From positions 186,001 to 250,000 of the forward strand of contig CDROCS010001715.1 of assembly GCA_977020255.1 (NCBI GenBank): 64,000 nt of DNA, given 5' to 3'. This DNA comes from Obrimoposthia wandeli (taxonomy: Eukaryota). A program made the translations under genes and the position numbers. The notes under the pieces were generated by a model that made no database searches, was not told the origin of the DNA, and was given only the letters and a program-made list of their open reading frames with translations. Positions 4,150 to 54,703 of this stretch are shown piece by piece; the first letter of the stretch is position 1; the number at the start of each line of letters is the position of its first letter.

Positions 4150-6072
4150 TATTTTTGAAGACTAGTAACGTTTATTTTAATTTATTTTTTAGGTGTTTAT
4201 TAAAAACCCATTTTTCCTTAAATTCTTCAAATATTTTTAAAAACAAATATTTACAAACCATAACAGTAGTATTTAATAAAGCGGTAATATCTAATCACGT
4301 GTGTGAGAAAATACCTTTTTGATAATATGTGGGATCTTGAATTGAATTCTGGCATTGCTGGGTAGCCAATGAATCTTCCTAAAGTTCACTTTGAACTAGC
4401 ACTTTTCTTTAATTTGGAATCTAAATTTAACCCTTAAAATTTCTGTAAGCAATTTAAATGATTAATATTTGTGCAAACCATTTTGAAAATCAAGTCTTGA
4501 AGTAATAATTCGCACAATGTTAGCATTGGAATTATCTCAGTAGTATTTTCTTTAAAAAAGATCTTATTAGTTAAATCATTTTGATATGTTTTATCACTTT
4601 ATTAATTAGAACGAAAGTTTATTACAATCAATTAAATTATTTGTCTCAATTTTGATCAATTAATGAAGGTATGATATTTTTGAAAGGATTTTGTAAATTT
4701 TCAAAAGATTTTCAATTTTGAATAAAGATTAAAAAAGACATTTTGAAAATGGTAGAAGAAAATCAATTGATTAATATTTTAAAGAAAACAAGATTAGATA
4801 TAATAAAATAAACATAATTCATTAAATATATATTCCATAAGAGCAGCCTCTCATCGACCCGGTAAATTGATTGAGCTTTGATAATCAATACTAAAATGAT
4901 TTGCAGTATTATTAGGTTGAGTTAATGGTAAATATACATTGAATTCTGAGATGCTAATATCCAACTGAGTTTCACTGTATTCGTTTCACTTCTACTAAAT
5001 ATTGTGTATGCTTTCCCGACCCTTTGTCTCTAAGATTTCTTGTATTCTGTATATACTTTTGGTTTTCAGGTAATACTTGTAATTCTTCATCATAAAATTT
5101 ACATATTTTATTTTTTGATCTCCATCCTCAATAAAAGTACATTACTGGAGCAAGTTTGGAATCGATTTTAGTTTTTGAAATACTCCCATCACTCCACCCC
5201 TTCGAAATTCTTTATAAAGCGAGTAGTACTAATTTGTGAAATGTGTACATAATCTCCAATCTTATACTTGGGTTTCTTTCCACTTGAGTCTGATTTCCTG
5301 ACGTTGCCATTATTTCCATAGCATTTTCATCTGAAATATCTATCTGCTCATTTCCATCGAGGGAGAATGCTCATTGTGATTATATACAAATATAATTTTA
5401 GGTAAAATTGTGATCCAAAGTATTTCCTGACTTTTAGTGAAATACTTTTTCAATCGATTCAATCGATCTCAATGTTCAATTAAATCTGTCAACTAGAACT
5501 ATTTTAAATTGAGAAAACATAGAATAATTATTTATCCCAGTTTTTTCATTAAGCCACCAACATGTTTATTATAAAAACTCTCTACCACTATCAGTTAGAA
5601 CATGCATTTCTTTCTGTCATCAATTGTTTCATTGCTTCTAACACATCTATACCAGATTTAGATCTTTAGGCATAGTTTCTAACCTTGCTAAAAACATCAA
5701 CACAAGTTAAAATATATCTGTATCCTGAGCTTTAACGGCACGTTGAATCATCTCCATCAAATCCACTTGCCATAAATCATTACCGTCTGTCTTGTATGAT
5801 CTCGCCGAGAACTGGTGTTTCATCAGTTTGTTCAAGTTGTGCTGCGATTTGTCAACCATGCCCGAGCTTTCTTTTGTTTGTCTTTGCTTCTTTTCCCAAT
5901 TTTGAAATTCCTAAAACCAACGGAATGATTTGGACCGAACCATATTTTCTCCATTGCCAACTAGATGAATTAATTTTAATATTGAGTTTAGAATGAAAGT
6001 TATGTCACCATTAATATCCAGAGATTTTAACTTTCATGTTTACACTATTTTCTATTTATAAATTCCATAATT
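4150..6072 (-). mobile_element. Polinton/Maverick fragment A (integrase plus start of penton), truncated by the LTR at 6073
   Basis: Decayed frames are homologous to the copy C integrase and penton. Left boundary is approximate. Confidence 0.8.
4940..5954 (-). pseudogene. Polinton retroviral-like (c-)integrase, decayed
   Basis: MEKIWFGP start; YKTDGNDLWQVDLMEMI; GYRYILTCVDVFSK; C-terminal KFYDEELQV...KGSGKHTQYLV. These match 50942-51971; several stops and frameshifts. Confidence 0.85.
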
Positions 6073-7463
6073 TGTTATATTACTAATAACTGATCAGTTT
6101 GGGCAAATCCAATATTTCGTAAAATAAGAGTTGGCAATTCCAATATTATATTTGATCAACAGATCAGTTTGGGCGAACCAATATTTCGTAAAATAAGCAG
6201 TGGGCAATTAATTTTGTTTGTCAACAGTCAGTTTGGGCGTTCAACAGGAAATTTCGAAAATCAAAGTGGGCAATTCAATAAAATAAGCCTCAATAAAATG
6301 TTATATTTCTTTTTCTTTGTAAATTCTCAGGAACGATCAAAAACTATTTTAGCAAATTAGCAATTTGTTTTGTGTTTTTCATATATTTGGAACGATCAAA
6401 AATCCAATTCCAATACTTTTTAACAGGAACGATCAAAAATCCAAGTAAATTTGTTTTGTGTTTTTCATATATTTTCCATACAATTGATAAATTAATAAAT
6501 TAAGAATTTGTGGTATACATAAAAATGTTATCCGTAGTTTCCAAATGTAAGTTCTAATAATCACAAATTTTTTAATGAATCCATAAAATTGTAATCCGTA
6601 GAGGCTTATACATGGGACATGCACAGAGTTGAAAAGAGCCATACTGTCCAACTGTGCTGCAGTTGTGTACACACATAGATTAGTGGGCAGAGATGGCACC
6701 ACAACACTATGTTGTATTTTGTCTGAGGAAGGAGAGAGAATCCCTGTGCCAATGCACACACAAACAATCGTCAAGGTTGATCTGGACGTAACAGCTGGGT
6801 ATGGACACACACACACAGAAACTGAAAAGGGCGATACACAATAATAATAATAAAAAATAGCAATTTAACGAGGCAGTAAAAGCTGATAATTGGAGGTGTG
6901 ACATGTACACAACTACTGCAAATAAGCAAGACTAAATAATCATAGGCAATAAAATACGAACTTAAATATCAATAATAATGGTAATAATAATGGTAATAGT
7001 AAAGGTAGAGAATAGTCCTAGAATGTTTAGTGGTAAATCAGATATCAATTAATGTCAGCAATCCGGGGAAAAATGGGCAGCGGAAAGAGAGGATTGTATG
7101 TCCAACTGTGCATGCACATCTCTGCCTTGGTAGCCACCATCCGAAGACGGCCGATCAGGATGACGGGAAAACGATGGGGAAGGATGGCGGGAGAGAGTGT
7201 GTAGCCGGGATCCGCTGACCGTTGCCGACTGAACGAATGCCGACGGCGATCTGCCGCCAGGCTGGGAGACTGGGCGGAAAATTTTTCCATAAATCAATCT
7301 TATCTACATGCCGCCTTCCTGATGAGCCCGGCAGGGCGAAACAGGACTTTCCACCCGTCTGAGGCTGAATTTGAAAAACCTCCCTAATTGTGGGCACTTT
7401 AGATAATTTATAAAATGTCAATTTAAATTGACTTTCTAAATTAATTATTAATTAATAACAACA
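6073..7463 (-). repeat. 3' LTR (left copy)
   Basis: Starts TGTTATATTAC, ends TAACAACA; direct repeat of 20014-21250; tandem units of about 60-70 nt in the first 350 bp. Confidence 0.88.
7313..7365 (+). ncRNA. type I hammerhead ribozyme motif (weakened copy)
   Basis: GCCTTC-CTGATGA-GCCC GGCA GGGC-GAAA-C...GTC-TGAGGC. Core is intact, but stem III has an A-C mismatch and the first stem I pair is C-U. Confidence 0.75.
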
Positions 7464-7799
7464 ATCCTATGGGGGTAAACCAGTCAGACCTCTGACGTTC
7501 ACAAAAAAAATGAAAAATGAATATCCGTTTAGCATGTCTGTCAAAATGTGATTTTAAAAACAAAATTATCAAGGCTGCTAATCCATAATCCAAAAAAAAT
7601 TTGAACGTCAATTTTTATGTTACACTTTCGCGAGTAGTAAAAATATCTATTGCATGATGCATAAAATAATAAGAGTATAATATTTGGTCTTAATTAAAAA
7701 GTTGATGTCAGGATCAAAATTTCAGTAATTTGCAGAAAAATTTTGTATACGAAGTCATTTTAAAAATGATAAACAGTTTAAAAGTTGATAGGTTTTTGA

Positions 7800-10700
7800 T
7801 AACAAATAAGTCAATTGTTTGTGCAGTAATAATAATACCTTTTAACTATACGTTATCTAGAATAAAACAGTCGTTTGAATCAGAGTCGGAGTCGGATATC
7901 TCATTTGGGGTACCCAACAAATCATTCAAACGGAACTCCTCCACCAGTCTTTCTTTACGTTTGTCAAAAACTCGCTTAAGTTTCTTGCGTCTTCTAAACA
8001 AGTGTGATATTTCTTTTGAGATTCTTCTCCAAAATATTTCTCTATCATTGTTCTCAGTGCTATTTTTGGCCTAGTTCTGATCTAATTTCAGTGGATGCAC
8101 CTAGATCTACTATTCTTGCAAACTGACATCTTTCGAGTCGTAAAACTTTTAAATCATTTTCTACTCCCTGCTCCTACTAGGATGTTTCCGACTAGTATTG
8201 TTTGAGCTCTTGCTATAATGTCTTCCGCATCGGCTCTTCCTGTCAATGATTTCTCCGTAAAATGAGTCACTCGATGTACATAATTTCCGGATTCTTTCCC
8301 TCGGTGTGACTATTTCATGTAACACGATCTGGTTCTTTTCATCTATTATCGTGATACTTCCTAAAGCCTGTTTTTGTTAACTGCGGTGGCCATTTCACAA
8401 TCCATAAAAGATTTAACAGGTGCCTGTCTTGTAGGATTATTTTCTATGAACATGATTTTATTTGTCTTTTTTATAAGCTCTATAAAAAATGTATTGCGTC
8501 TAGGACTAAATTTTAATAAATATTCGTTTCTTAATTCGTTTTTTACTGATGGTGTATGAATGATTTTGGAGGAACATGTAACTTAAATCTTTCTCTTGCT
8601 TACTCATTAAGTGGGCTCGTCCTTCTGCTACATGTATCTCTATTTCCTCTATATCTATCAATTCACCTACCAATTCTATTAAACTTATCCTTACATTTTT
8701 TGTATGATGCATGGTGATTATGACACTTTTTCTACTAGTTTTAGTGATTTTCAATTTATTTGGGATGAACGTTTGATTTTCAAAAATGTGTTTGCTCTCA
8801 TCATTATTTTTAAGTTTCTCTTTCCTACTGTCTATACTTCCTATACTTCTTCTATAAAGGAACTTTGCTAAGATATTCATTTTTGGAGTACACTTTGTTT
8901 GTATTTCATCTTTGCTTAAATCTATAACTGGTGGTGAAGGACCGTCTTAACAACTTTCTCCCACTACACGGATCCATTTCCGTTTGTTTGTTGAGTATTC
9001 CATCTGTGATATATATAACAGAATAAGAATACAGCAAGGTCATTAGTCACAAAGCTCATGCAAAAATAAAAATAAATTATTAGTTCATTAGTTAGTTGGT
9101 TAATCAAGAGTATATCTAATATTGTACTAGTTCCTTGTTGCTCGATAATCATAAATAAAGTATAGATATATATATAGATATAATTATGTTTATTATTATT
9201 ATTTTCTCTTCTTTTTCCTTTTTAATTCAGTAAACATTATTTTCCTAAATCATGCTCATCATCTCTATTTCATTCTCAGTCTTTATTAAATGATTTTAAT
9301 TCTACTCACTAGGGGAATTTACTAATTGTCGCATCAGAATCATCGCTTTCTATATGTTGGAATCCCATCAAGTGATTCACCATTGATCGTAAGGATATTA
9401 GTGAATTTAACGCTTCTCTGAGTCTTTGTACTAGTATTTCTTGGCTTGATTGGCTATGTTCTAATCTTTCAATTGCAACGTCAAAAGCATTATTCATTCG
9501 TTCATTCCATTTCCTTGTCTTTTAAATGCGATCTCAGATTTATATTCTCTATCAACAATTTATTTTCCCATTTCTTCTGTCTCTTATATCTTCTTCTATT
9601 ATTTTGTACTAATTTTGAATTTCTCATTTTCTAAAATGTTAAAAAGTTTTTAAGTCTTATTTTAAAAAAAAATAAATAAATAAATCTTTTGATTTTTACA
9701 AATCAGTGTTGTTTTTCTCTTTGTGTTTATAGTTCTTGATTACCGTATCTATTGATGTATTGGATGAATTTGTACCACTTGGTATTATGGATGTTATGAG
9801 TGGACCTGGTGGTCCATACAGTTTGTTTAAGTGAAATGATTTTTTAGTTTTAATTCTTTTAAAAGTTTTTTATTTTTATTATTACTTTTATTAAAATGTT
9901 AAATATTTCAATTATTATTGCTATTATTATCTTAAATTCTGTATGATATATGTTTTTGTGAATGATTTCGTTGACTAAAAAAAAATGTTATATGTTTTAA
10001 GTTCATCGATTTTGATGAATTTATTGTATTTTTTAAAAAGGTTGACTGGTTTTGTATGTTTTCTTTAGAGATGATTGATGATATTTTCTTAAATATTTTT
10101 GTTGTATATTGTGTTAAATATATTTTCATTACTTTTGTTGATTTTAAAATAGGATCTTTTTTATTTTTATTATTAGCCAACTCCGCAAAAAAGAGTTGGT
10201 TGAAACATTTTTGATATCTTTTTTCCTATTGTTTCTAAAGTAGTTATGTTTTTGCAAGTATTCAAAATGTGTCCCCAACTTCTATACATCATTGGTTTTT
10301 ATTTGTGATTACACATTCTCTATATTGCACTATTATTTTCTCTAGATATCTTATATTTTCTATGGTTAAATTTGTTTTAGTTTGTGTATTTTCTAATTGT
10401 TTTTCTGAGTTTTTCCAAAAATTAACATTATGTCCTCTATATCTAATTCTAATGAGGGCTTTATCTAAGTCGTCTATTTTTAGTTGAAATTCCCATTTAT
10501 CATTATTTTATGTTTTGATATATATTTCGCTGTTGTTTCTAATATTGATGCTAGGTATATGTGAGTTGCTATAGTTCGTTGATAAAGTGTAAGGGTGTGT
10601 GTGTTTGATGTTAGTGTAATTTCATATTGTGTTTCATCTCTTAAGAATGGTATTGTATATTTTCGTGATTTTATTCCTATTATTGTTATGTTTTGTTTCT

Positions 10701-10990
10701 GTCTTTTTGTGTAATTTGTATATTTCCGGTTTTGTTTATAAAAAGCGAAATTTTTTAACTTTATAGATGTGATTTCTGGTATTATTGTAATTAAACCAAA
10801 ATTTTTTATAAGATGTGTTGTCGAGTCATGTTTATTTATAACATTTTTTTTATAGTTAGTTTTTTTATCATTTAGTTTGTTAACATTTGCTCCTTGTACG
10901 TTTTTACTTATGAAGAGATAAATTGCGAATATTATTAAAATTTTGAAAAAATCCTTTATTGATATAACTATTGCTTTATTCCATTTACAT
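7800..10990 (-). pseudogene. decayed accessory ORF region between integrase and 3' LTR, unknown product(s)
   Basis: Broken minus-strand frames (8506-8880, 8964-9152, 9309-9497 and others); signal-peptide-like KDFFKILIIFAIYLFISKNVQG near 10890-10960. Confidence 0.45.
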
Positions 10991-11149
10991 TTTTTGTTTT
11001 TAATATTTTTCTCTGTATATCTTGTATTGGTAACATTTGTAAAACTGTGTTTTTGTGTTTGATCTCAAATTATATTTGTGGCTTTTTTTACTGTTGTATT
11101 CTCTTCTGGTACTTGTCGACATCTATTTATGTGTGTTCTTATTTCTTTT

Positions 11150-12250
11150 TGATTTTAGTTCATTGTCGAGTTTAGCTGTTATGTTAGTTCCATTGGTACT
11201 AATAACTGTATATGGTCCTTTTGTATGGTTTTGATAATTTGAGTGATAATCCTACAATGATTTGTGGATTGTGAATCATTATTTACTTCCGATTTTTATA
11301 TTTGATGGTTTAGTTCTTCTATCATAATATTCTTTGTAATTTTCTTGTATGTTTTTACAAATAATTTAGCTTTTCAAATGCTAGTTTTATTCTTTCTCTA
11401 ATTTCTATTTTGTATTCAGGTATTTCTAGGTATTGTGTAGTAGGTTGTAGTAATGTTAGATCAATAGGCATTTGCGGATCTCTGAGGAACATAAGGTAAG
11501 GTGTTTCTCCTGTAGATGCATGTACTGATGTTCTATATGCAAAAAGGCATGGGGGTATGTGCAAATCCCAATCTGTTTGGTTGTTGTTTGTATATGATGC
11601 CATCATATTTTCGAGGGTTCTATTAAATCTTTCTTCTAATCCGTCGGTTTGAGGGTGATATGGTGTTGTATTGATCTTTTTTATGTGAAAGATTTCAGCT
11701 ATTGATGCTAATACATTATTTATAAATTCAGGACCTTTGTCGGTTAATAACTTTCGGGGTGCACTAAAACCTTCGCGATGGTTTCAGCCTTATGATCATG
11801 TGTTGGAAAAGCCTCTGGCCATCTTGTAAAATAATCTGAAAATACTATTATATATCGATTTCCTCGGGGTGTTTCAGGTAATGGCCCCATTACATCCATG
11901 GCAACAGTTTCCATGGGGGCCGATGGATACGGTATTGGTTTTAAAGGTATCTTTGTGGTACGTAAGGTGTTTTTCTTTTAAAGACATATTTCACAAGTAT
12001 TACATCAATTTTTTACATCTTCTTTCATATCAATCCAATAATATTTTAAATTTAATCTCGAATGTGTCTTCTTTGTTGAAAGATGTCCTCCTAAAGCTCC
12101 GTTATGTATTGAAGGAGTAATTGGCATTGTATTTCTTTAGGTATAACTAGTGAGTACTGATTCTTATCGTTGCAATAATGGAAAAGGTGGTGACTGAATT
12201 TATACCGAGATTCAAGTTTTAAATGTTGTCTTAATTTTTCATCTGTTGGA
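11150..12250 (-). pseudogene. gypsy integrase
   Basis: YWIDMKEDV..CNTCEIC zinc finger; METVAMDVMGPLPETPRGNRYIIVFSDYFTRWPEAF; PYHPQTDGLEERFNRT; WDLHIPPCLFAYRTSVHASTGETP; PYKGPY (GPY/F). Confidence 0.93.
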
Positions 12251-12399
12251 ACTTGATTGATGGTGATATACTTAATTATTTGTTGTAATTCCGTATCTTT
12301 GCTTTGAAGATCGGTGATTACTTTATCATCATATCGAGCCTTGATTATTGTAAAAATATTTAATTCGGTGTCATTGGAATTTATTACATTTACTTCTTC

Positions 12400-13620
12400 T
12401 CTTATTCTAGAATAGGCAATCTGCATTGGCATTTGATTTACCTTTTCTATATTTAATTTCAATATCATATTTTGGAGAATTAACGCCCATCTCATTAGTC
12501 TAGATGTTGTATCTTTATGATTTAGTAGCCACTGTAATGGTCTTTGATCAGTATAAACGTGAACTTTTCGACCTAACAAGTAATGTTTAAAATGTTCCAT
12601 TGCAGAAACAAATAGCGAGGCATTCTCTTTCTATTGTTGAATAATTTATTTCGTGTTTTTTAAGACCTCTGCTTGCGTACGCTATCACATGATCTTTTCG
12701 TTATTATCCTGTTGTCCTAGTACTGCTCCTAACGCGTATCCACTTGCGTCAGTCATTACTAGAAACGAGTTGTTGAAATTAGGATATCTCAATATAGGTT
12801 TTTCAATCAATTTTTGTTTTAAGTACTCGTATGACTCTTGTTGTTCCGTTTCCCATTCAAATTTTTCATCCTTTTTAATAAGTTTGTTTAATGGTGTTGC
12901 TATTTGTGCAAAGTTTCTGATAAATCGACGATAATATCCTGCAAGTCCTAAAAATTCTTGTATATTTTTTACTGTTTTTGGAATTGGAAAATTCTTTATT
13001 TTTTCTATATTACTTTCATCTGGTTGAATTCCTTTTGCTGATACTGCGTGACCTAGATAATTCACTTTGTCTTTCATCCATTCACACTTTTTTGGTTTTA
13101 ATTTTAAACCTGCTATTTTTAATCTAAGAAATACATTTTCTAAATCTTTTAAATGTTCTTCAAAATTTTTTTGAAAAAATTAGAATATCGTCGATATAAA
13201 CCATGACATGATCGGCGTCCATCAAAATGTGGCTCATGCATCTCTGAAATGTTGCTGGAGCACCTGTTAATCCAAAAGGTAAAACGTTAAATTCGTATAA
13301 TCCTTCTCCTGTTGAGAATGCTGTTTTTCTGTATCTGATTCCTCTATTTCTATCTGCCAATATCCACTTTGTAAATCTAAGGTTGTAAATATTTTTGCAT
13401 TTTTTAGTTTATCTAAGATTTCATCAATTCTTGGAAGCGGATACGTGTCTTTATGTGTGATCTCATTTAATTTTCTGTAATCTACGCAAAATCTTAGTGA
13501 ACCATCTTTCTTTTTATCAAAACAACTGGAGATGTCCATGCTGAAAAACTTCTTCTTATGATTTTATTCTCTAACATTCCTTTTACCTGTCTTTGAGCTT
13601 CTTCTCTGTAAGCGTATGGG
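12400..13620 (-). pseudogene. gypsy reverse transcriptase and RNase H
   Basis: [86 protein letters not shown]; frameshifted. Confidence 0.95.
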
Positions 13621-13822
13621 ATACGGTAAGGTCGTTGTTTGATTGCTGTATTAATAGTTAACGGAAGGTTATGTTTAATTAAATCTGTTCGTCCAAGGTC
13701 ATATTCATTTTTGCAAAAATTACGTCATATTTTTCCATCAATGATTTTAATTTTGATTTCTCATAATCATTTAATCTAATATTTTCAAATTTTACAGTGG
13801 AATTGTCTTCTATTTTTCATTA

Positions 13823-14215
13823 TTAATTAATTCTATATTCTCTATAACACTTATTTTTCCAAGGCGTGTTCCTACTTTTTAGATGAATCTCGTTTATGTC
13901 TCCATTTAGTATTCTGATAGGTATTGTATTATTTTTTATTTTACAAATTATATTTGGTAGAACGTAATTTAATGTTTCCTGTTGATATTTATAAGGTTCG
14001 AATAAGATGTCTTTTTCTGTAACTATGTTAGTTTCTAATTGTAATATTGTTTCTGTTCTAGGTTGAAGGATGATATCTCCTTTTATTTCCAATTCGTATT
14101 CGCTTTTAGCGTTTGGTCTGTAAATGTCTTTAATTTGATTTTTCTCGAAGTCGAAATGAAAATTGTTTCCTAATTTCCTTAATATATCTATTCTATTATC
14201 ATCTGACATGGACAA
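13823..14215 (-). pseudogene. spacer between protease and RT, possibly a degenerate dUTPase-like fold
   Basis: IILQPRTETIL...LFEP...PIRILN pattern, like spacers seen after the protease in some gypsy pol proteins. No catalytic dUTPase motifs were recognised. Confidence 0.35.
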
Positions 14216-14219
14216 TTTT

Positions 14220-14455
14220 TCATTATTCTAGTAGGTATTTTTATAAATTTATCTCCTATTTTAAAAATGCCATCTAATTTACTAATAATATTTACGGGTT
14301 GACCGTTTGCTGCTGTTATTTGACTGTTATCTGTGTGAAGTAGTGATATTTGGTGTGGTTTAAGAAAGACTCGTCCAAAACTGTTACGCTTGATCCTGTG
14401 TCAATTAAAGCTTTTAATTTGTACTCATTAATTTCAACTTTTTACATAAGGTCGT
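14220..14455 (-). pseudogene. retropepsin (aspartic protease)
   Basis: Removing one A from an A-run near 14440 gives RPYVKVEINEYKLKALIDTGSSVTVLDE (DTG catalytic motif). Confidence 0.9.
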
Positions 14456-16506
14456 CTATCATTATCCATTTGATTTATAGTATATATTGTTGGTGCAGTT
14501 GATTTTTGAACTTTTGTTTCTTCTTTATATTTTTCTAAATCGGGGTATTGTGTAGATTCTGTATTCTCTTTATTTTTATTGTCTACTATTTTTTGTAAAT
14601 TTGTTTCTCGCATTTCGTTTGATAATGCGTTTACAGTATTTTGATGATGATTAAATATAAGAAATTTTGCCAAAAATGGAAAACATCCTAATATTAGTTT
14701 CCATGTTAATCCTCCAACTTTATAAATATAGTATGTGGATAAAATTTGACTCAATAGTATTTTAAAGCATATTAGTAGTGCATATATTCCTACAAGTCCA
14801 GAAAATGCTTGTCCAAAAATTAAAAATTTCCCCCATATTTTTGACATTGTATTTTTTGTAGCTTTTATGTAATGGTTTGGAGAAAGTAATAAATCATAAT
14901 CAGGACGGCTAATTCCGTCTGGTACTGATCTTTCTATGATTTGTGTTAAAATTCGTGATCTTATTTGAGGAAATAAAATTTCTTTTCTTAATTTATCTAT
15001 ATCTTCTTGTATGTAAATGCCTTTTGTATTTAGTTCATTGTCTGGATTTATTTCTATGTCATTTTTTAGATTAGTTAATTGTAGTTTTAGTGGTTGAGCA
15101 ACTATGTCTCTTCTTGGTAATGTTATCCATATATATTTTGAGATTTTATAATGAGGTGCCATTATGTTTGAACAGTTTATTTTTTTTATGCTGAATGTGT
15201 TAAAAAGTATTATTCTGGTGATTGGTTCTACAAATAATGAATGATTTTTGTATGAAATTGGCAATTCTTTGGTACATTTATTGTGATTTCTTATATTAAC
15301 TATTACTTTTTGGCATTGATACGTATATAGTACCTCTCCCATTACTCTTCCGAAAGTACCATCTGGTAACGGTAATAATGGTGTTATTAATTCTGGATTT
15401 GTAGCAATAATTGCTAGTTTTGTTTTCAAAATTTCTTGATTTAATTTACAGTCATTCATTATTGTTTCTCTATAAATAGCTTCTATTGTCATTAATCCTT
15501 TGTGATAAAAATAATCTAATTTATTATTGAAATAATCGTAATTTTTTATATCAAATTTTGTTGGTGTAGTTTTTGCATTATAAATTTTTCTTACTTAGAT
15601 ATATTCCTTTATAATTAGTTGTATAAATAGAGTGTCCACATCGGGATTCCTCTTTCTTTTTAATAAATCGCATACCTGAACCTCGTTCAGTTGACATTAA
15701 AATAGTTGGAGTTGATGTTTTTGTATTTTTCTAGTTCTATATTTTTAAGTATATTTTTTGGAATTCGTTGATCTAACTCTGGATCATCTTTGAATCTTTG
15801 ACCTTGAATTATTTGGAAATTTTCTGATTTTAGTAGTATTAATTTACATTGGTCTGTTTTACCTTATAGTATAAAATTGAAGATCCTGTGTTACAATATC
15901 CGATATTTGCTGCACAGAATGGCATAGTCACCATGGTATTTGTAGATGGATCAAATGTTGCCTTAAATGTTCTTAGTTCTACCTCAAAGTTTTTTATAAC
16001 TACTAAACCACTTTGTTTAACTCCCATTACGACGTATGATCCTGTTGTGCATTCTCCGTCAGATTTGATAGTTCCTACCACCGTAATCATTTGTTGTATT
16101 ATTTTGTTTTTTATTGCTTTTACTTTTATTTCTCTATCTATTCTCAGTTCGCCTGTTGCAAAAGCATCTTTACAATTTAACGCGTCAACAATTATTGGTG
16201 TTTTTCCTAATGCTGGCTTAACAATTGAATTATGGCTGTGTTGAATGTTATGAATGTTTCCACATGTACTCTACATTCGAAAACTTCTGTATTTATGTAA
16301 TCTGTTTCCTGGTATACATGAAATAACTTGGTGGTTTAAACTTTTACTTCATTTGGATCTGCGTCGGCGCATTGTTGTAAATCCATTAGTGAATATTTAT
16401 TTTGAATACTATATTTTGAACAATCATATGCTTCAAGAGCATTTATAGGTTTTATTATATTTGTAATTATACATATCATAAATATTATTTGAATTATTTT
16501 CCATAA
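14434..16506 (-). pseudogene. class III viral fusion glycoprotein (chuvirus G/herpes gB-like env) with internal signal peptide and C-terminal TM segments
   Basis: LWKIIQIIFMICIITNIIKPINA/LEAYDCS...YSLMDLQQC; G..GRVMGEVLYTYQC...KCTKELPI....FVEPITRII...C....P.Y.I...W; hydrophobic GQAFSGLVGIYALLICFKILL and WKLILGCFPFLAKFLIF. This Cys/motif pattern matches chuvirus-type glycoproteins. Confidence 0.8.
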
Positions 16507-18358
16507 ATTCTGGATGATTTTGTTAAAATTATATGTATTTTTAAGATTTGAATTTTTACTATTTTTTGGTGATTTTCGTTTATTTTTATTTTTCGATTTT
16601 TTATCTTGTGTTTGAGTGGTTTGATTTATTTTTGTACTTATTTGTGTTCTTTTTTCTAATGTTAGACAACCGTTTCTAAATATTTCTCCGAATTCGGATT
16701 GAGAGTTGGTACTATTTGTGTTTTGCTCATTGTTTTGGTATTGCTGATGTGTTTCTTTATAGCGATTATCTATTTCTTGTTGTCTTAATCTCATCAATGC
16801 AACTTCTTCTGTTTCCTGAGTTATATCAGTGTTTTCAATAGTATGTATTGGGTTTCTGTAAGCATATTGTTGATTTTGATTGTTAAACTGTACTGTTTTT
16901 TGAATCTGTGGTTGTGGTTGTTGTTGTTGTTTTATTGTTGTGTTACCAAATTGATTCATCATTGTATTTAGTTTGCTACATTCATCCGTATTGTGATTTT
17001 TCATATTACAAATTTTCCAAAATTTTGTATTAGTATTAAAATATTTAGCTTGATTATTTTGATTACTGAAATTATTATATGGGCTTCTAAAATTACTATT
17101 TGTATTTTTGAAATTATTATTTGGATTGTTGAAGTTATTATTTTGTGGTCGTATATTATTACTTTGTCTGTATAACAGTTTTCGGCAAGTTTCAATAGTA
17201 TGATTGTCTTTTTTTACAAAATCTACAAAATTTGTTGTTGGTTATTTTATAACAATTCTCTATTGTGTGATTTTGCAGTCCACAATTTGTACATTTTTGG
17301 AAAGGTCTTTGTGTAATTTGTGAGTCTGTATAGTTTCTGTTTGTTTGATTCCTATAAAAGTTATTTGTCGGTGGTGTATATTGTTGCTGGTTTTGGTAAT
17401 TAGATTGTGTATTTGGGTTATAGTTTTGAGTTTGATTGAAATTTGGTGGTGTTGTAGGTCTTTGTATTTTTTCAAAGGTTAATGCTGAAACTTCAGATTG
17501 TTGTAACATGTTTAATCTTGTTTCTACAAGTTGAGCCTTATTTACAGCTTGCTGAAAGTTTTCTACTTCTAGTAGAGCTGGATGATTTTTGATTTTATTA
17601 TTTAATCCATGTAGAAACTGATGTAATAGTAAGCGCTCTCTTAAAACTTCCTCAATTCCAGGGAATGATTTTAGGGCTAAACGTCTTAATTCAATTGCAA
17701 AAATATTTGTGGGTTCTCCTAAATGTTGCTCACGTTGTCTAAACTGATTTAAGTAATTTTGCTCTGATTGGGTTCCTAAAATCATATTTTGAAAATTCTG
17801 AACTAAATGGTTCCATGTGTCTTTTTGTTCATTGTTTAATTCTATATAACTTGTTAAGGCAGTGCCTTTTAAATACGCTGGAAAAACCCTAAGTTTCTCT
17901 TCATTAGTCCATTCAAATGCCTGAGCAAATGAATCAAATCTATTTAAAAATTCGGGTAATGAAGATTTATCGCCATTGAAAGCGTCCAAAGGATCATTTA
18001 ACTTATGTTCAGCCATTATTTGAGGTTGATTATCTATTTCTATATTATTTGGTTCGTTCAATTCGGGTTCTGGTGTGTTTGTAGTTTGAGTAGCTTCTGT
18101 TGAGCTATCGGTTTCTAGTGTTTGGTTAGTAAGGCCATCTGTTAGACTTTCTGAGCTGGTTAAGTTTAGTTGGATTGGGTGTTGGTGTTGTAATGAAGTT
18201 TCTGGGAAAAATTCGCTATTTGTTCTAAAGCTTATTTGAGATTTAGGTCTCTGTGGTGGTGATTCTTTAGGTTCTGTTCTTACTAGTCGGGCTTGAATTC
18301 GTCGCCAGTGAAGACTAGCGCTACGTTTGGATTTATGAATTTTATTATTTTTATTTAT
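16507..18358 (-). pseudogene. Gag with three CCHC-type zinc knuckles and Asn/Gln-rich linkers
   Basis: Capsid-like FLNRFDSFAQAFEWTNEEKL...LKGTA; knuckles CTNCGLQNHTIENC, CRFCKKDNHTIETC and (W)KICNMKNHNTDEC; one frameshift in an A-run near 17212. Frame is open up to 18358. Confidence 0.88.
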
Positions 18359-19994
18359 TCAACGCTTTTTATCACTATGTTGTAGATTTTATTAAAGTTG
18401 TTGAATTTATAATATTTAAATAACCAATTTTTAGCTTTTTTTGAATCAGATAATTTGTCCCAGACTTCTCAAGATTGCTGACCTATTGGATGTCGGCTAT
18501 CCTTGTTTCGCAATTATGAAAAAATGGATACAGAAAAATCTTGTTCAAAATTCTGTAAGTGCTTGAGGTTGATCACAGTATCCTTACTTTTGAATAAATC
18601 AGTTATACACTACCGCTAAGGGTCAATCTAATTCAGTTATATTATTGTTACGTATAAAAAAAAAATTTTGATTAATAAAATATTATTTGATTTGATTACT
18701 TTTATTACAAACAGCAAGTCAATTAATTGTTTGTTATACTTTATCAATGAAGATAGGAATAAAAATATTTATATATACGCAGCACAATAGGATTATTTAT
18801 TGATACTTTTCAAAGTTAAATTTGAAAAATGGAATACAATATATACGATTTTAATAATTATGAATTAGTTATAACTTTTAATGATGTCAACTTTTTAATG
18901 TAACAACTCTATGGTTCCAAATCAGTTTACCAAAGAATAAAAATGAATGTAAAATAGTAAGTCCAACTTCGAGAGATAATATAAATGGTATAAGTAGTTG
19001 AATCAAAAATCAAATACAATTGTAAAGCCGTAAAATTGTTTTTAATAAAAATTATGATATATGAACTTTTAAACAGTAATTATATTTTCAGAAATGTTTA
19101 GGTCAAGGTATTCCTACAGTCTCCCGCAATTCTATTTTCTACCTTCTTAACCAACCACCAAGACCACAACTGCTCCCTTATTCTACGGTTATCTGCTTAT
19201 TTTGGTCTCGGAACCTTTGTTTCGATTACCGCAGAGAGAGGAACAGTCCCGCTCAAAAATGGTCGAAAATTTTCAAACAATACTCGTGAGACTATAAGAA
19301 TCCCTAATTTTCAAAAATAATATTTATACGATTATGACATTCTATCTATCACTATTAGAAATAAATATAATTTTAAATACAATAATCAATTTTTAACACA
19401 AAAAAAAAAAAAACTATATAATTTTAGTTTATACTTTTTTAAATTTTCAGTTATTTATTGTAATCTCTACTTATATACACATATATAAATGGAAATTAAC
19501 TGAATATTTTATTCCCAGAAAAGAAACCGCAAAAATAAATATGTTAACAAATAAACCCAAAATATGAGTTTTAAAATTACTTCAAAGAAAACAATATAAA
19601 TATATTCTATAGTAAAATTTATGTAAGTTATGTTGTTCAAAGTTATTTATTGGATTAGTTTATAGAAGTTTGTGTTATAACCACAAATCAAATTCACAAT
19701 ACCGTTAAATGTAAATAAATTGAATATTACAAATGATGGAGTTAATATTAATAAAATTGAATACTAAAATGATTGTTAATAAAAAGTTAATTTTCAAAAA
19801 TTGAATTCAAAGTTCTCTAGGGCAACTAATCACAAATGAATACTACAAATTGTTATAGCTATAAAAAGTATTTAAATAGTTTCTGTTATTTTGAGCTTAA
19901 TGCAAAATCCGACCAAATAATGTTAATATATGAAAATGTAAAACAAAAACCAAAAATAAGGTAAAATCAAAATAATAAATGACCTGCTTGCGTT

Positions 19995-20011
19995 CTGGAT
20001 CGGGCTCACCA
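19995..20011 (-). promoter_or_regulatory. primer-binding site
   Basis: Minus strand reads ...ATATTACA-AT-TGGTGAGCCCGATCCAG directly inside the 5' LTR. TGG is complementary to tRNA CCA; the cognate tRNA was not identified. Confidence 0.8.
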
Positions 20012-20013
20012 AT

Positions 20014-21250
20014 TGTAATATTACAAATAACTGATCAGTTTGGGCAAATCCAATAATTTCGTAAATAAGAGTGGGCAATTCCAATATTATATTTGATCAA
20101 CAGATCAGTTTGGGCGAATCCAATAATTTCGTAAAATAAGAGTGGGCAATTCCAATAAAATAAGCCTCAATAAAATGTTATATTTCTTATTTCTTTGTAA
20201 ATTCTCAATTGATCAACAACTATTTTAGCAGAATTAATTTTGTTTGTGTTTCGTTCAACAGGAACGATCAAAAATCCAATTCCAATACTTTTTAACAGGA
20301 ACGATCAAAAATCCAAGTAAATTTGTTTTGTGTTTTTCATATATTTTCCATACAATTGATAAATTAATAAATTAAGAATTTGTGTTATACATAAAAATGT
20401 TATCCGTAGATATACGGGACAAAAATCAATCAGTGTAAGAGAGGCTGTGATGCATGCATGCACCCAGGTTGAAAGGACGCCAAACTGTCCAACTGTGCTG
20501 CAGTTTCTACACACATGCATTTAAATGGAGCCATCAAACACTATATGATCCAGAATCCCTCTCGAAAACACATTCACGGAATCTGCTAACAAACACACGC
20601 ACACACAGAAACTGAAAAGGGCGATACACAATAATAATAATAAAAATAGCAATTTAACGAGGCAGTAAAAGCTGTAATTGGAGGTGTGACATGTACACAA
20701 CTACTGCAAATAAGCAAGACTAAATAATCATAGGCAATAAAATACGAACTTAAATATCAATAATAATGGTAATAATAATGGTAATAGTAAAGGTAGAGAA
20801 TAGTCCTAGAATGTTTAGTGGTAAATCAGATATCAATTAATGTCAGCAATCCGGGGGAAAATGGGCAGCGGAAAGAGGGGATTGTATGTCCAACTGTGCA
20901 TGCACATCTCTGCCTTGGTAGCCACCATCCGAAGACGGCCGATCAGGATGACGGGAAAACGATGGGGAAGGATGGCGGGAGAGAGAGTGCAGCCGGGATC
21001 CGCTGACCGTTGCCGACTGAACGAATGCCGACGGCGATCTGCCGCCAGGCTGGGAGACTGGGCGGAAAATTTTTCCATAAATCAATCTTATCTACATGCC
21101 GCCTTCCTGACGAGCCCGGCAGGGCGAAACGGGACCACCCCGTCGGAGGCTGAATTTGAAAAACCTCCCTAATTGTGGGCACTTTAGATAATTTATAAAA
21201 TGTCAATTTAAATTGACTTTCTAAATTAATTATTAATTAATAACCCAACA
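20014..21250 (-). repeat. 5' LTR (right copy)
   Basis: TGTAATATTAC...TAACCCAACA; near-identical to the left LTR except a central block and the tandem-repeat region. Confidence 0.9.
21101..21150 (+). ncRNA. type I hammerhead ribozyme (intact)
   Basis: Stem I GCCUUC/GGAGGC, CUGACGA, stem II GCCC-GGCA-GGGC, GAAA, stem III ACGGG-ACCAC-CCCGU; cleavage predicted after C21144 (GUC). Confidence 0.92.
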
Positions 21251-23450: not shown

Positions 23451-24100
23451 ACATAATTTTGAATCAATAATATGAGATAACTTCCAGATATACCTAAATT
23501 AAATATAAAAATCAAATCGTCTTGCTGTAATGGAGAAAATATGGCTCAATCCAAGTCATCCTGTGGGTACACAGGAGTTTCAAAATTGGCAAGAGAAAGG
23601 GAAAGAAAGGGAAAGAGAAAACTTAGATGTGGTTGAAAATTAAACTAGCTTACAGCTTAAACAAACCGATGAGACATCGGTTCCCAACGAGATCATACAA
23701 ACCGAGCGGCCTGAATGATTTATGGCAAGCATATTTGATGGAAATGATACTGTATGAGAGTATTAAAAATATATATATTTTAACTCGTGTTGATGTCTTT
23801 AGTAGATTTGCAAGAGCTCTAAAGTCTAAATCCATAATGATGTTTTAGAGACAATGACGCAAATGATAAGGGAAATAAAACCAGCAAATTTCCAAATAGA
23901 TAGTGGAAAGGAATTTTATAATAAACATGTTAGTACATTATTAAAAAACATGATAATAATCATTATTCAGTGTTTTCTCAATATAAAACTGCCTTAGTTA
24001 AGCGTTTTAATCAAACATTAAGATATATATTGAAAGAGTATTTCACTAAGCAGGAAAATATAACCTGAGTCAGCGTTTTACTTCAAATAATACATGCATA

Positions 24101-25169
24101 TGTTGGGAATATCTTATAAATATTTATTTAAAAAATAAAAAATATATATATATATATATAAAAATTAAAAAATGAGAATTAATTAATTAAGGAATTAATT
24201 AAGAATTTCCCTTATTAGGGAAAAGTTCTATTTAGATAAAATATGCACTTTGGCATTTTAGTTTAGAGTGGTTAATCTCCGACAGGAAAAAAAAACGTTT
24301 CGCCCTGCCGGGCTCATCAGGGAGATGGCTTGTTATCTCTGACTTCGCGGTGGGTTCTGCGAAGCCAGAGATAACAATAATAAAAAGCCAGAGAAAAGAA
24401 GGAAAGATTTCCCTTTTCATGTGGCGACGAATATCGTCGACATGTGATGTTGGTGTGCGCAAGTACACATTTCAACACACACACTCACACAGCGGACATC
24501 ACTCAACACACTCACACAGCGGACATCACTGTACTCACTCACTTATTCTCTGTACTCACTCACCTACTCTCAGTCTTGTGTATGTGTGTGTATTTTATGC
24601 AAAACTATTTTCCTCTCTGTCCAGATACGATTCTTGCGGACAGATGGGCAGTTTGCTTGTGTGATCGTTTTCTCCCTCTTCCCAGATGCGCTACAATCGA
24701 TTGGCATGTGGGCATGATTTCGCGCTTCCAGTTGTGGGCAGCGTTTTCATCGGCACATATCCCCAGCGGAAGAATAAATTGTTGTGTACCTGCTATAAAA
24801 GCAACACATTTTCAATAACTAAAAAAGTCATGATTACACAGAAAAATACAGAATCATAAATATTATTATTTTATCATCGTTATTAAAACTGATAGAACAT
24901 CAAATTATTGAACTATATTTAATTGAAATCAGGACTATATTGTTATTCTAAAATTGAACAATTTGATTTGATTTGATTTTCCAGCTATTACTTTGGAAAC
25001 ATTATTCTATTATTTTAGAAACAATTTGAACAATTTGATTTTCCAGCTATTACTTTGGAAACATTATTCTATTACTTTAGAAACAATTGGATTTGATTTT
25101 TTCGGATATTGTTTTGATTAAGACAATAAAAATTGATAATAAAATTACTTATTATTCAATATATTAACA
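24101..25169 (+). mobile_element. solo LTR of a family related to 6073/20014, in opposite genomic orientation
   Basis: TGTTGGG...ATATTAACA; perfect 4-bp TSD CATA (24097-24100, 25170-25173); related tandem repeats at 24950-25110; TATAAAA near 24795. Confidence 0.92.
24275..24326 (-). ncRNA. type I hammerhead ribozyme
   Basis: Minus strand reads ATCTCC-CTGATGA-GCCC GGCA GGGC-GAAA-CG(T9)CCT-GTC-GGAGAT; perfect 6-bp stem I and minimal stem III. Confidence 0.88.
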
Positions 25170-26329
25170 CATACAATCATAGTGAACAGTCATCATTAGA
25201 GAGAAAGAGACCTATTGATGTTACAGATGAAAATGCTATCAAAATTTGGCAACATCGTAATCAAAGAAAAGTTGTAAAGAAACCCAAGTATAAAATTGAG
25301 GATTATGTACGTATTTCTCAAATTAGTACTACTCCTTTTATAAAGAATTTCTAAGAGAATCGAAATTAAATTGAAGGGGGAAAATTTGAAATAGTTTTTA
25401 ATGATGAAATTATTGCAGAACAATATGTATTTCCAACTAAACCTAATGATGGAAAATATGTGGCTTCAGGAATTATGGATAAACATAGTAAGTATCCAAT
25501 AATATGTTTTAAGATAAAAAAAATAATTCACTAAACATGAGAGGAAAAAAAACAAAAACTTATATATTCAAAATTTAAACTACTTAAAATCAAAAAAGTA
25601 AAACCAAAAGCAATGTTAAAGAAAAATATACAAAAATATACAAATTAATAAGTAAAGAAAAAATTACTATTTTTATTCAAATTTTCTGATTGGATTGAGA
25701 GTAAGTTCTACATTAAGTTAATCTCATTGGCTTAATACTATTTTAAAAATAGTATATAAGAAAGTACGAAGCAGCTGAGAATGGTAAGATTATTGATATT
25801 ATTTTTAATTTATCTTTTTCAGAATTGCAAGATGAATAATAAACTCTGTTTTAATCGTCAACAAGGCCAACCCCCTCGACTTCCCATCATGTTCAATGTT
25901 CCATACAACGTTCTCGATGTACCACATCGCTAATCGAGAATGCAACCATGCGGAAGTCCCGAAGAGCGAAGAGCGGACCAGCTCAACAACCAACAATAAC
26001 CGAAAGTAACTTTTTGACAAAAACGTGACATCATGAACTAACCCTGTGTATCGCATACTGCGATAAAATATCTACCAGAAATTGTATGTTATAAATTAAA
26101 TCTTCTTGTAAAATTGTAACGATTCTCGACGATTTTAAGTATGTTGTATATTTGGAACTGTAATTATTATAATTGAAACTCCTAAAGACAATCTTTTTAT
26201 ATCTGAGAAGTGAAAATCATCAAAATAGTGACAAAATTCGGTTAAGTAGCTTAGGAAGAGATAAAAGTTTGTATAAGGATTTAAATTAATACACTCCCAA
26301 AAAACCTAATCATAAATAATGCCATGCAT

Positions 26330-50853: not shown

Positions 50854-50941
50854 AAACAATTAATTCAAAAATCAGCTAAAGATATGGGTGCTAACCCTTC
50901 TTTACCTAAATTTAAATTTTCTATATATTGAAATTGTTGTA

Positions 50942-51971
50942 ATGGAGAAGATATGGTTCAATCCAAAAGATCCAATTGTATACACAGGAATTTCAAAATT
51001 AGCAAAAAGAACAAAACAAAATTACAAGAAAACGCAGAAATGGCTGAGCGATCAGTTAGCCTACAGTCTGAACAAGCCGATGAGAAGAAGGTTTCCAACT
51101 AGAGTTTACAAAACCAGCGGTCCTAATAATTTATGGCAAATGGATTTGATGGAGATGATCCCATATTCTTCCATTAATAAGGGATACCGATATATTTTAA
51201 TATGTATTGATGTATTTAGCAGGTTTGCTCATGCAATTCCAGTTAAAGCAAAGTCTTCAATAGCTATGCTTGAAGCCATTAAAGAAATATTAAAAGAGGA
51301 CATTCCACAAAATGTGCAAACTGATTTAGGAAAATAATTTTATAATAAGCAAGTTCAATCATTATTTAAACAAAATAATATAAATCACTACTCAGTGTTT
51401 TCACAATACAAAACAGCAGTAGTTGAAAGATTTAATCGTGCTTTAAGAGATCGAATAAAAAGGTATTTCACAAAAGAAGGAAATGAAAAATGGGTCCAAG
51501 TTTTACCTAAAATAATACATGCATATAATCACTCTGAACATAGAGGTCTCAAGGGAATGAGACCTGTTGATGTTACTAACAAAAACTCTATGGATATTTG
51601 GATAGACAGGAATAAAATAGAAAATATTAAAAAAGCTAAATATAAGATTAAACGAATATGTTCGAATTTCTAAAATTAGCTCTACTCCTTTTATTAAAAA
51701 ATTTGATCAGAATTGGAGCGATGAAATATTTTGTATAAGTAAAATTGATCAAAAGAGTAATTCAATAATGTATACTATTAAAGATGCTGACAATAATATC
51801 GTTCACGGTAAATTTTACGATCAAGAACTACAAGTAATATCATATAAACCTAGCGTTTTCCGAATTCAAAAAATATTAAAATCTAAGGGTGCCGGTAAAC
51901 ATAAACAATACTTTGTTCAATGGCATGGTTATTCAGACCCAACTTGGATATCAGCATCTAATATAATATGA
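50942..51971 (+). pseudogene. Polinton integrase with C-terminal chromo-like domain
   Basis: LWQMDLMEM, YILICIDVFSRFA, VQTDLGK*FYN, AVVERFNRAL, YFVQWHGYS; one stop and one frameshift. Confidence 0.95.
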
Positions 51972-52790
51972 AGTCTATGTATATGGTGTTACCTAGTAAC
52001 GGATGTCCGAAGACTCAACCAGATAAGGACGCTAGTAGCTTTATTATCGATTTGGAAAATCCTATAAATCTCCAAGGTTAATGGGAAGCGACTTTAACAA
52101 AATTTCCTTTTTATTATTCTCCAATTTCTATCAGAAAAAACTCACATATTTCGTTTACAAAAGAATTTGATCATGAAAAAACAACTGAAGTTGTGATCGG
52201 GTTTGATAGTAAAGGAAATTTCTTTTACAATTGTATAGATAAAGAAGTGAAAGTTATATATGAAAATAAAAAAGTCAGATTTAAAAATCAATTAAAATAT
52301 CTTCAAGTTATTAAAATTACATTTGAATCTGAAAAAGAAGCTCTTCAATTCAGTTTTGATAGTGAACAAACAGTAGCTCGTAATAGACGGAATATAGTCT
52401 CATCTAAATCGGTTAGAAATGTTCCTGGTAGAGTAGCAAGAGTGTTGTTACTTGAAACGAGACCAAAGAATGTAGTGGAATTGAAAAAGTTTTCAAAAGA
52501 TTATAAAATAGATAGTGAAGTGAATTTTATCTAAATTAAGACAGAAGGAATATAGTGAATATTTGGATAAATGTGTAACATTAAAAAAAAGTAAATTATT
52601 GTTTACAGTAAAGATCAATTTGAAACGGGTTTCATTTCAAAGGAAGCCACCATAAAAGCTAAAAATAAGGCAAAACGTTTATATGCTGTTAATCATTTAT
52701 ATATTTATACTAATTTAATAGAACCAACACTTGTAGGAGGACAACAAGTTCCACTTTTGAGAACAATATGGATATCTCAAAATCAAACTA
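51968..52790 (+). pseudogene. minor capsid protein (penton, PX)
   Basis: MYMVLPSN...FIIDLENPINLQG*WEATL start; YIYTNLIEPTLVGGQQVPLLRTI end. Confidence 0.8.
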
Positions 52791-53092
52791 ATGATGGATC
52801 TGGCTGGCTTAGAACATTAGGTAGATTTGCCTTTTCTCTTTTAAAGAGACTCAGGAAATTTGTATCAAAATTAGGAAAGTACTACCTTTCATCTAATGAC
52901 AATAAACTAATACCAGCTTTTAAAAAGCATGCACTTAATGAACTTGATAATGTTTTACCTGACGTTGCTAATTTGATTAGAAAAAGTAAATCAAATAAAA
53001 GCCAAGAAGGTAGTGAATTTAAAAGTAAAAAGAAGAAAAAAATTAATATTAACAAACGTAAGAAAGTTGAAGGAACAATATATGTAAAATGA
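52790..53092 (+). CDS. small basic amphipathic Polinton protein upstream of MCP (cupiennin-like in adintovirus terms)
   Basis: GSGWLRTLGRFAFSLLKRLRKFVSKLGK...QEGS..KKKKK. Confidence 0.6.
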   Translation, partial: NDGSGWLRTLGRFAFSLLKRLRKFVSKLGKYYLSSNDNKLIPAFKKHALNELDNVLPDVANLIRKSKSNKSQEGSEFKSKKKKKININKRKKVEGTIYVK

Positions 53093-54320
53093 GTTGCGCC
53101 AAAACCGAATTGTGTATTTTTGATAAACCACTTCCACAAATAGTTGTAGATAATGCTTCCTTTGAAGAAATATTTCTAGTTAACTCAGTTTCAGGAACCA
53201 CTTTAACCGATTTAGAATTTAATAATAATGGTTCCAATAGCGAGTATTTAGATTTGAATGATACTTTGCTTTATGTTCAAATAAAAGTATTAAATCGGGA
53301 TGGTACAAATTTAGAGGAAAATGCCGATGTAACACCTGTAAATTATCTCTTTAATTTTTTATTTAGTGATGCCTTTGTTACTCTTAATAATGTCAAAATG
53401 GAAGGTGGAAATTCTTCCTATGCTCATAAAGCTTTTATTGAAAGTCTTTTGAATTATTGTACTGATACTCAAAATACTAATTTGGCAACCATTGGTTATA
53501 TGATAAAACGGTTGCAACTCGCTAAGAATGGATTGCAGGTTCTAAAGCTTACGAAATGTGTGGGTCTTTGAGATTGAATTTCTTTGAACAACCGAAATAT
53601 TTAATTTCCGGTGTTAATGTACATCTTTGTTTGAAACGTAATAAATGGAATTTTTCTTTGATAAGCAAAGACGTTCTAAAACCTATACTTGATATTTTGG
53701 ATGCAAAATTGTATGTTCGAAGAGTTAAAACTGAGCAATCAGTTTTAATGGCACATAATATAGGAATGGAAAAAAACAATGCTTGTTATCCTATTAGAGA
53801 AACTAAACTTTTATCTTATTCTTTAGGTACGGGTACACAAGCTTTTAATAAGGATCAAATGTTTGGTGATGTAAGATTACCAAAATTCATTTTAATTTCT
53901 TTTCAAAAAACTGCAAAGTTTCTAGGAAATTATACGACAGATGTAACTCAATTTGACAATCGTGATGTAGGTTCAATGACACTTTCAAGAAATACTGATT
54001 ATCGCGAAACATATAAAACAGATTTCGAAGGTAACGCTTATGCTTTGGCTTATACGCTATCTATTATTCGGAATTTGGGTCAACTAGATAACAATATAAA
54101 CAATGGTATTTCTTTCACTGAGTTTAAAAGTAGCTGCTCGTTCTTCACATTTGTTTTGGCACCAGACTTTGATATAAATCAATGCCAACTACCAAAGGAT
54201 GGAAATTTACGACTAGAAATTAAGTTCAATGCAGCTTTAACACATCCTACTACGGTGCTTATTTACGGAGTATTTGATTCGGAAATAGAAATAAGTAAAA
54301 ACAGAACTGTCATATTATAG
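53089..54320 (+). pseudogene. major capsid protein (PY, double jelly-roll)
   Basis: CAKTELCIFDKPLPQ, EYLDLNDTLLYVQIK, LLNY, KLYVRRV, PKFILISF, NGISF.EF...F.FVLAPD, GNLRLEIKF; frameshift near 53500. Confidence 0.92.
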
Positions 54321-54321
54321 A

Positions 54322-54703
54322 ATGAAGTAAGAAATTTTTTAAATTTATATTTATTAATTTTTATTTAGTTCAGTACAAGTACAAGAATCAACAGAGAAGG
54401 TCCTGGGTGATAAATTCAATGGAGTTTATCCAATTGATATGATTCCATTTTTTCAATCTGGAGGTTACATTATCAATACTCATACTTCGAATTTACCAAG
54501 AGAACATTGGATAGCTATTTATGTTAGAGAGTGGACAATACATCTATTTGATCCACTTGCAATGTATTAACCACACAAACTTGTTTCAACTATTCAAAAA
54601 GGACGAAGAAGAGTATTTTACAACAAGATACAATATCAGGATCCTGCGACGAGAAACTGTGGACATTTATGTATTTTATGGTTATCGTTGCAAAACGTTT
54701 AGT
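54322..54703 (+). pseudogene. adenain-like cysteine protease (42-nt intron 54327-54368; one TAA)
   Basis: Spliced MNSVQV...FNGVYPID...INTHTSNLPREHWIAI...FDP...Q...CGHLC (H, D, Q, C catalytic motifs). Confidence 0.9.

Follow-up and report, generated by a model that had tools for sequence, protein, structure and literature searches.

The LTRs of a coding, envelope-carrying Ty3/Gypsy lineage in the Obrimoposthia wandeli genome contain a type I hammerhead motif on the strand opposite to the element's genes. We are confident that this family encodes a real hammerhead under selection. The likeliest explanation, which we hold with moderate confidence, is that a selected hammerhead in U3 cuts antisense RNA before that RNA enters the element. 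The copy flagged in an initial annotation lies at 24275..24326 on the minus strand of a 64,000-nucleotide window, the whole stretch of DNA analysed here (positions 186,001 to 250,000 of contig CDROCS010001715.1, assembly GCA_977020255.1).

All parts of a type I hammerhead are readable in this copy on the minus strand. Stem I consists of AUCUCC (24321..24326) and GGAGAU (24275..24280). The core CUGAUGA, stem-loop II (GCCC-GGCA-GGGC, with loop GGCA) and GAAA together occupy 24298..24320, and the stem III region, which is short and lies around a U-run, occupies 24281..24297 together with the GUC cleavage triplet. C17 is 24281, and cleavage is predicted between 24281 and 24280. These are the type I hallmarks, a CUGANGA core, GAAA and an NUH triplet ordered around three helices, with helix I open. 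Directly 5' of stem I is a conserved GCC (24327..24329, minus) that complements the GGC of loop II and is proposed to form a tertiary pairing with it. The position of a conserved UGA 3' of stem I (24272..24274, minus) holds variant letters in the flagged copy. A long near-perfect hairpin of 21 bp (24330..24378) stands immediately 5' of the ribozyme; such a hairpin is common to several LTR subfamilies, the others having differently sequenced hairpins at the same spot.

An Rfam scan of the window gave no match at gathering level. The best Rfam match of the flagged copy is to Hammerhead_3, a type III model, at 32.8 bits against a gathering score of 48.5 (E 0.0003). Against a model of the LTR family the same copy scores 68.3 bits, the model having been built with this copy included. 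A type III reading via an upstream GUC, as suggested by Rfam, was rejected because the upstream strand is engaged in the long hairpin and, in the GUCCCC subfamily, is not complementary to stem I.

The carrier is a true solo LTR, as the initial annotation had it. It spans 24101..25169 (plus), is 1,069 bp long with TG..CA ends, and is flanked by a 4-bp target-site duplication (24097..24100 and 25170..25173, plus); the ribozyme is antisense to its own LTR. Another solo LTR, L009, is 94.5% identical to it over the full length, and the target duplication is perfect at both. Contigs from two of four sequencing runs, compared with 23900-25000, revealed nothing beyond the presence of the LTR in many copies. 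The insertion splits a decayed Polinton-like integrase sequence (23522..25350, plus), and the sequence on its two sides matches 50934-51526 and 51552-51704. The window has several pieces of Polinton-like integrase, together with a protein-primed DNA polymerase, at 5200-5955, 23522-25350 and 50864-57241, and both LTR insertions in the window adjoin Polinton-like integrase sequence.

Stem III of the flagged copy has three pairs where typical relatives have five. The initial annotation had suggested that this weak stem might need dimerisation. A dimer model, which would suit minimal motifs of the Penelope type (PMC4209133), was discarded, as the relatives, including the closest sampled LTR, have a 5-bp stem III; four stem III positions distinguish the flagged solo copy from L009. 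In folding predictions, the hammerhead fold of the flagged copy is 10-12 kcal/mol less stable than the best fold and its pairs have probabilities close to 0; fully paired relatives come within 0-3.5 kcal/mol of the best fold (6.2 for one in longer context). Several fully paired copies also have alternative folds that are 1-6 kcal/mol better when longer context is folded. The flagged copy, on these models, has a stem III weakened by decay of its own; it is predicted to be misfolded and is most likely inactive, a dead member of the family stranded in a solo LTR.

The window also contains a coding element of another subfamily (6073-21250, minus). Its 5' LTR (20014..21250, minus) contains a hammerhead on the plus strand (21101..21150), antisense and with every stem paired. 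A PBS-like stretch (19994..20011, minus) starts with TGG 2 nt past the end of the LTR. The internal genes (11358..18358, minus) are broken and comprise gag, a linker ORF, a Monjiviricetes-type fusion glycoprotein, a protease region, RT-RNase H and integrase. Two further ORFs in the 3' interior (8506-8946 and 10480-11064, minus) have no Pfam match and are ~36-91% conserved across the lineage. The 3' LTR (6073..7463, minus) carries a second antisense hammerhead (7313..7365, plus) with mismatches in stems I and III, including a broken pair adjoining the cut site that the initial annotation did not mention. The LTRs of this element are ~99% identical in U3 and 85.5% identical overall, and its target duplication has a mismatch. 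The element is probably a recombinant of two subfamilies.

Comparison of the three LTRs agrees with most of what had been reported from them. Between the copy at 21101-21150 and the flagged copy, stem I changes from GCCUUC/GGAGGC to AUCUCC/GGAGAU by two double changes and one wobble, and all six pairs are kept. Core and stem II are identical, the solo LTR matching each of the other two over 37-38 nt that cover the ribozyme. The LTRs do align poorly otherwise, with one plus-strand match at E<0.01 per LTR; the aligned termini and tandem repeats that the initial annotation described hold as resemblance only.

A 24-letter pattern of core and stem II is matched exactly at 3,642 places of the 1.35-Gb genome, and its reversed control nowhere, so the hammerhead match is not a chance one and the identification at 24275-24326 stands. 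A pattern for other stem II sequences gave 847 matches, against 42 in its control. With the core left unspecified there are 3,726 matches, and among the first 100 of these, counted by eye, the core is intact in 93 and GAAA is present in all 100. Position 7 in the same 100, also counted by eye, is T in 41, C in 46 and A in 13.

The alignment used to examine the stems was made from sequence only and holds 86 of 142 rows, 84 of them distinct, some loci having been entered twice among the 142. Repeat fetches, second LTRs, near-identical copies (judged by eye), 11 rows with a longer stem III and four others were left out; the four (L051, L055, L061 and L138) have an unpaired 3' half, and their omission raises the paired share slightly. 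In the 84 distinct rows 95.3% of cells are paired, compared with 86.1% in shuffled alignments (none of 500 as high) and 27-50% in slid controls, and double changes occur in 12 of 18 pairs (six of six in stem I, three of four in stem II, two of five in stem III and a lone cell of the proposed loop contact); since the copies are related and LTR parts recombine, the cells with double changes overstate the number of separate events, and the shuffle counts should not be read as probabilities. Stem haplotypes found in at least two rows have mismatches in 2 of 103 cells, against 59 of 351 in singletons, a pattern expected if active lineages keep the fold while inserted copies decay. Stem III is 5 bp in the shared haplotypes. 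On the ribozyme strand there are 66 G-U cells against 25 A-C cells, an excess that could partly reflect mutation bias. At four-fold sites of RT, the subfamily of the solo LTR and that of its neighbour are 0.70-0.72 identical (37-39 sites), at which level the 23 identical letters of core and stem II would persist by chance about 4 times in 10,000. The initial annotation had taken the two stem I sequences as direct evidence of selection on RNA structure across LTR families. Pairing and covariation are indeed found in the larger alignment, and selection is borne out once the family is sampled, but two sequences did not amount to direct evidence. The covariation does extend across LTR types, though these are recombining subfamilies of one lineage and not separate families.

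The letters flanking stem I are conserved as well. GCC and UGA are kept in 77-84 of 84 rows, while the commonest letter of neighbouring columns occurs in 27-58; neither flank was part of any collecting pattern. This conservation would fit probable tertiary contacts of GCC and UGA with the GGCA loop. The GCC:GGC pairing is almost invariant in the main alignment, which for that reason gives the loop contact no covariation support. An older subfamily has a RUAA loop with a UUU or UUC flank in 9 of 9 cases, whereas GGCA-like loops occur with GCC-like flanks in 7 of 7, a change of loop and flank that reads, in sequence terms, as one coordinated switch. General hammerhead biochemistry is the basis for expecting fast monomeric cleavage from such loops, and by this analogy the predicted contact suggests a fast monomeric ribozyme.

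Pairing of GCC with the GGC of loop II has been proposed for other hammerheads, as GCCR with YGGC, in the parts of PMC7936874 consulted. Four phage contigs (L140-L143) encode type III hammerheads with a stem-loop II identical to that of the LTR motif. Their loop I starts with UGA, UAA or UGAC and ends with GCC; the LTR motif thus corresponds to a circular permutation with loop I opened. In the hammerheads described in PMC7936874 and in the phage ones, as in the LTR motif, a GCC at the helix I periphery complements a GGC of loop II. The LTR motif differs from both in being a type I permutation with loop I opened, whereas they are type III and, as PMC7936874 describes its own cases, have GCC on the 5' side of an internal loop. 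The phage contigs are GC-rich; their hammerheads fall below the Rfam gathering score and have a core that is also identical to that of the LTR motif.

The carrier belongs to a Ty3/Gypsy lineage with the order PR-RT-RNase H-integrase and Gypsy-type domains. Its elements are coding and 13-15 kb long, with an interior of 12-13 kb, and have a gag-env-pol order in which a gB/chuvirus-type env (PF24664, a Monjiviricetes-type fusion glycoprotein) lies upstream of the protease. In both copies checked (L033:2763-5411 and L036:1406-4471) the fusion glycoprotein runs in one frame into the aspartyl protease, which raises the possibility that env belongs to the Pol polyprotein. The nearest full-length relatives are ~50-55% identical and nearly all metagenome proteins, the lineage being classified by its domains. 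At the protein level, RT-RNase H is ~90-99% identical among the LTR subfamilies, and LTRs of one type occur with pol of another; the LTR types are thus recombining subfamilies of a single lineage. In their best match, the two LTRs of a pair are 94-99.6% identical (10 pairs), indicating a young expansion. A 4-bp duplication is clear at six of these pairs, likely at one, and unresolved or absent at three. All subfamilies seen have a short or weak purine tract ahead of the 3' LTR.

Neither the antisense orientation nor the coding, envelope-bearing nature of the carrier was part of the initial annotation. The ribozyme is antisense to the genes in all 15 elements with linkable genes, namely the window element, 11 others, two with other stem II types and one of the older subfamily; the count leaves out L145-L147, which are RUAA-type LTRs near sister-lineage sequence with inconsistent orientation, and L159. 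A PBS-like motif within 1.5 kb is on the strand opposite to the ribozyme in 19 of the 142 rows and on the same strand in none. In most rows showing the start motif, the core lies ~130-235 nt inside the 5' end of the LTR, a position that would be the 5' edge of U3. Ribozyme copies are dispersed or 12-14 kb apart.

The genome also contains a sister lineage with env, a RING finger and protease, whose RT-RNase H is ~45-60% identical to that of the main lineage, with at least 150 matching regions. No hammerhead was found in its LTRs by regular expression (7 pairs), by Rfam (4 stretches) or with the family model (0 of 7 pairs), so the motif is not needed for such a life style. This lineage had been considered as the carrier of the RUAA-loop ribozyme and was rejected, as none of its 7 LTR pairs carries one and the RUAA LTR joins the 3' interior of the main lineage. 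Sister-lineage elements (L146:2489-3676; L186-L226) are ~22-25 kb long, with RING before protease, LTRs of 1.9-2.6 kb with tandem repeats, and a long 3' interior. In one copy (L198-L199), ~2.65 kb of pol is triplicated in tandem, which may be real or an assembly effect.

Outside the O. wandeli genome, no motif-bearing Gypsy element was found in the collections searched, which hold few animal genomes. Seven Gypsy-like loci from IMG/VR gave no ribozyme match, and the type I pattern had no matches in viral contigs. Among the 80 of 118 metagenome loci examined, a type I fold is present in 29, none with a neighbour matching the element's proteins. One metagenome contig (L308:77-265) has four hammerhead-like cores in tandem, ~63 nt apart.

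Self-cleaving ribozymes in retroelements are explained as releasing or circularising the element's own RNA. In the cycle of an LTR element, however, the minus strand occurs as DNA, which leaves backward transcripts as the only RNA on which an antisense ribozyme can act. A ribozyme selected on a strand that is never packaged cannot release or circularise the element's own RNA, which points to control of antisense transcription. We propose that a monomeric, full-length type I hammerhead is kept by selection in the U3 of this coding, envelope-carrying Ty3/Gypsy LTR. Its RNA would be made only by backward transcription of the LTR, from an LTR promoter or from host DNA. U3 is copied from the 3' LTR, and the motif there would be in the last stretch that a backward transcript crosses before the element interior. 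Self-cleavage at this point would leave a downstream RNA with an uncapped 5'-OH. Uncapped 5'-OH RNA is open to decay or termination after such a cut, and the RNA would be degraded or its synthesis terminated. This would spare the element both antisense and double-stranded RNA, and would keep its genomic transcript free of interference.

The same anatomy would be expected if the ribozyme served as a counter-defence against piRNA silencing. In the piRNA trap model a copy lands backward in a piRNA source locus; the ribozyme of the first LTR would then cut the precursor before the coding region, and fewer antisense piRNAs would be made against the family. The very large young expansion, with its closely matching LTR pairs, is compatible with this reading, but the beneficiaries would be relatives and not the trapped copy, cleavage might also feed piRNA processing, and the position at the U3 edge suits an LTR-born transcript at least equally. 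We consider it unlikely. A broader form, in which the U3 hammerhead severs any antisense transcript, piRNA-cluster precursors included, and so helped the family reach thousands of copies, is put forward tentatively and is itself doubtful. Were it true, the motif would be a protein-free suppressor of RNA silencing, and the host genome would contain thousands of cut sites, each specific to one strand.

It is distinctly improbable that the product RNA is itself useful, whether through an uncapped 5' end used for translation of an antisense gene or as a short, stable regulatory RNA made of hairpin and ribozyme. Self-cleavage is described in PMC13725137, as far as that source was available, as promoting translation initiation in RNA viruses, and several subfamilies have the long hairpin directly 5' of the ribozyme. 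In all 8 of the 3' LTRs compared, however, the first AUG met from roughly the cut site on begins a frame of no more than 3-14 codons (in an unspliced reading), and ORFs of at least 40 aa vary among them in place and length. No conserved antisense ORF was found, the one in the window (7706-8074) having no match in other elements.

Retrozyme-like processing, in which two LTR ribozymes would release a unit-length antisense RNA to be circularised and copied, is very unlikely, although one ribozyme per LTR is the layout given for retrozymes in the available part of PMC4918200. The released RNA would be 12-14 kb long, and because it would contain the PBS and purine tract as their complements, normal priming by the element's own enzymes would fail. 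Retrozyme RNAs are non-coding and ~1 kb long. A look at 100 of the 3,642 places showed no short, non-coding derivative with two LTRs. Equally remote is a passenger, either a relic of a ribozyme captured once or a DNA site or sense-strand structure kept without catalysis: the motif is confined to one lineage and absent from its sister, and recombination could homogenise a short stretch, but double changes in three stems, a free position 7 within a fixed core, the G-U bias on the ribozyme strand and the conserved letters of the proposed tertiary contacts are expected of a catalytic RNA and not of a DNA site.

Cutting of antisense RNA at the U3 edge, the reading that we prefer, would have consequences beyond the element. 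Host transcripts that run through any of several thousand solo and paired LTRs in one of the two directions could be cleaved. One genome provides intact and dead natural copies together with a ribozyme-free sister lineage, and hence a direct test of cis resistance to antisense silencing. The observations also extend the range of hammerheads to coding, envelope-bearing Ty3/Gypsy elements.

Ribozymes are known from R2, L1Tc, SINE-like repeats, Penelope-like elements and non-coding plant retrozymes, going by the portions seen of PMC6765202, PMC7761336, PMC4918200 and bioRxiv 10.64898/2026.07.22.740005. Hammerheads are thus known in the LTRs of plant retrozymes and in Penelope repeats; we found none reported for coding Gypsy LTRs or for an antisense facing. 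A full-text literature search returned no such case, of which supplementary hammerhead tables or Repbase entries could hold examples. Elements of the GAG-ENV-POL Ty3/Gypsy kind with a gB-type envelope are reported from nematodes, bryozoans and flatworms in the accessible text of PMC13524379. The present elements resemble these in the gag-env-pol order, the Monjiviricetes/chuvirus-type fusion protein and the PR-RT-RH-IN arrangement, and are set apart by env being in frame with protease in the two copies checked. The main texts of PMC13524379 and PMC12440569, in the parts available, make no mention of ribozymes, and that of PMC13524379 does not contain the word 'hammerhead'.

The LTR retrozymes of plants (PMC4918200, consulted in part; Cervera, Urbina, de la Pena 2016) are similar in having one hammerhead per LTR, a PBS and purine tract, a 4-bp duplication and a link to Ty3/Gypsy. 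As described in that source they are non-coding and 1-1.5 kb long, mostly with type III ribozymes that delimit their own RNA. The carrier here, unlike retrozymes, codes for gag, env and pol over 13-15 kb and has a type I ribozyme opposite to the PBS and gene strand. Its coding interior of 12-13 kb compares with a non-coding centre of 600-1000 bp in retrozymes, and where retrozymes have the ribozyme on the strand of the PBS and purine tract (a polarity taken from a figure legend of PMC4918200), the 19 opposite cases and none on the same strand place it on the other. Penelope-like elements and animal non-LTR retrozymes (PMC4209133, PMC7761336 and bioRxiv 10.64898/2026.07.22.740005, each in part) also have a type I hammerhead in the terminal repeats of an animal retroelement. 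In those accounts, helix III is 1-2 bp or missing, the ribozymes form dimers in tandem repeats, and the endonuclease is of the GIY-YIG type. The minimal dimeric form, with a helix III of 1-2 bp, a palindromic loop and tandem copies, is not that of the LTR family, which unlike the Penelope type has a helix III of 5 bp, dispersed copies, a retroviral-type integrase and true LTRs.
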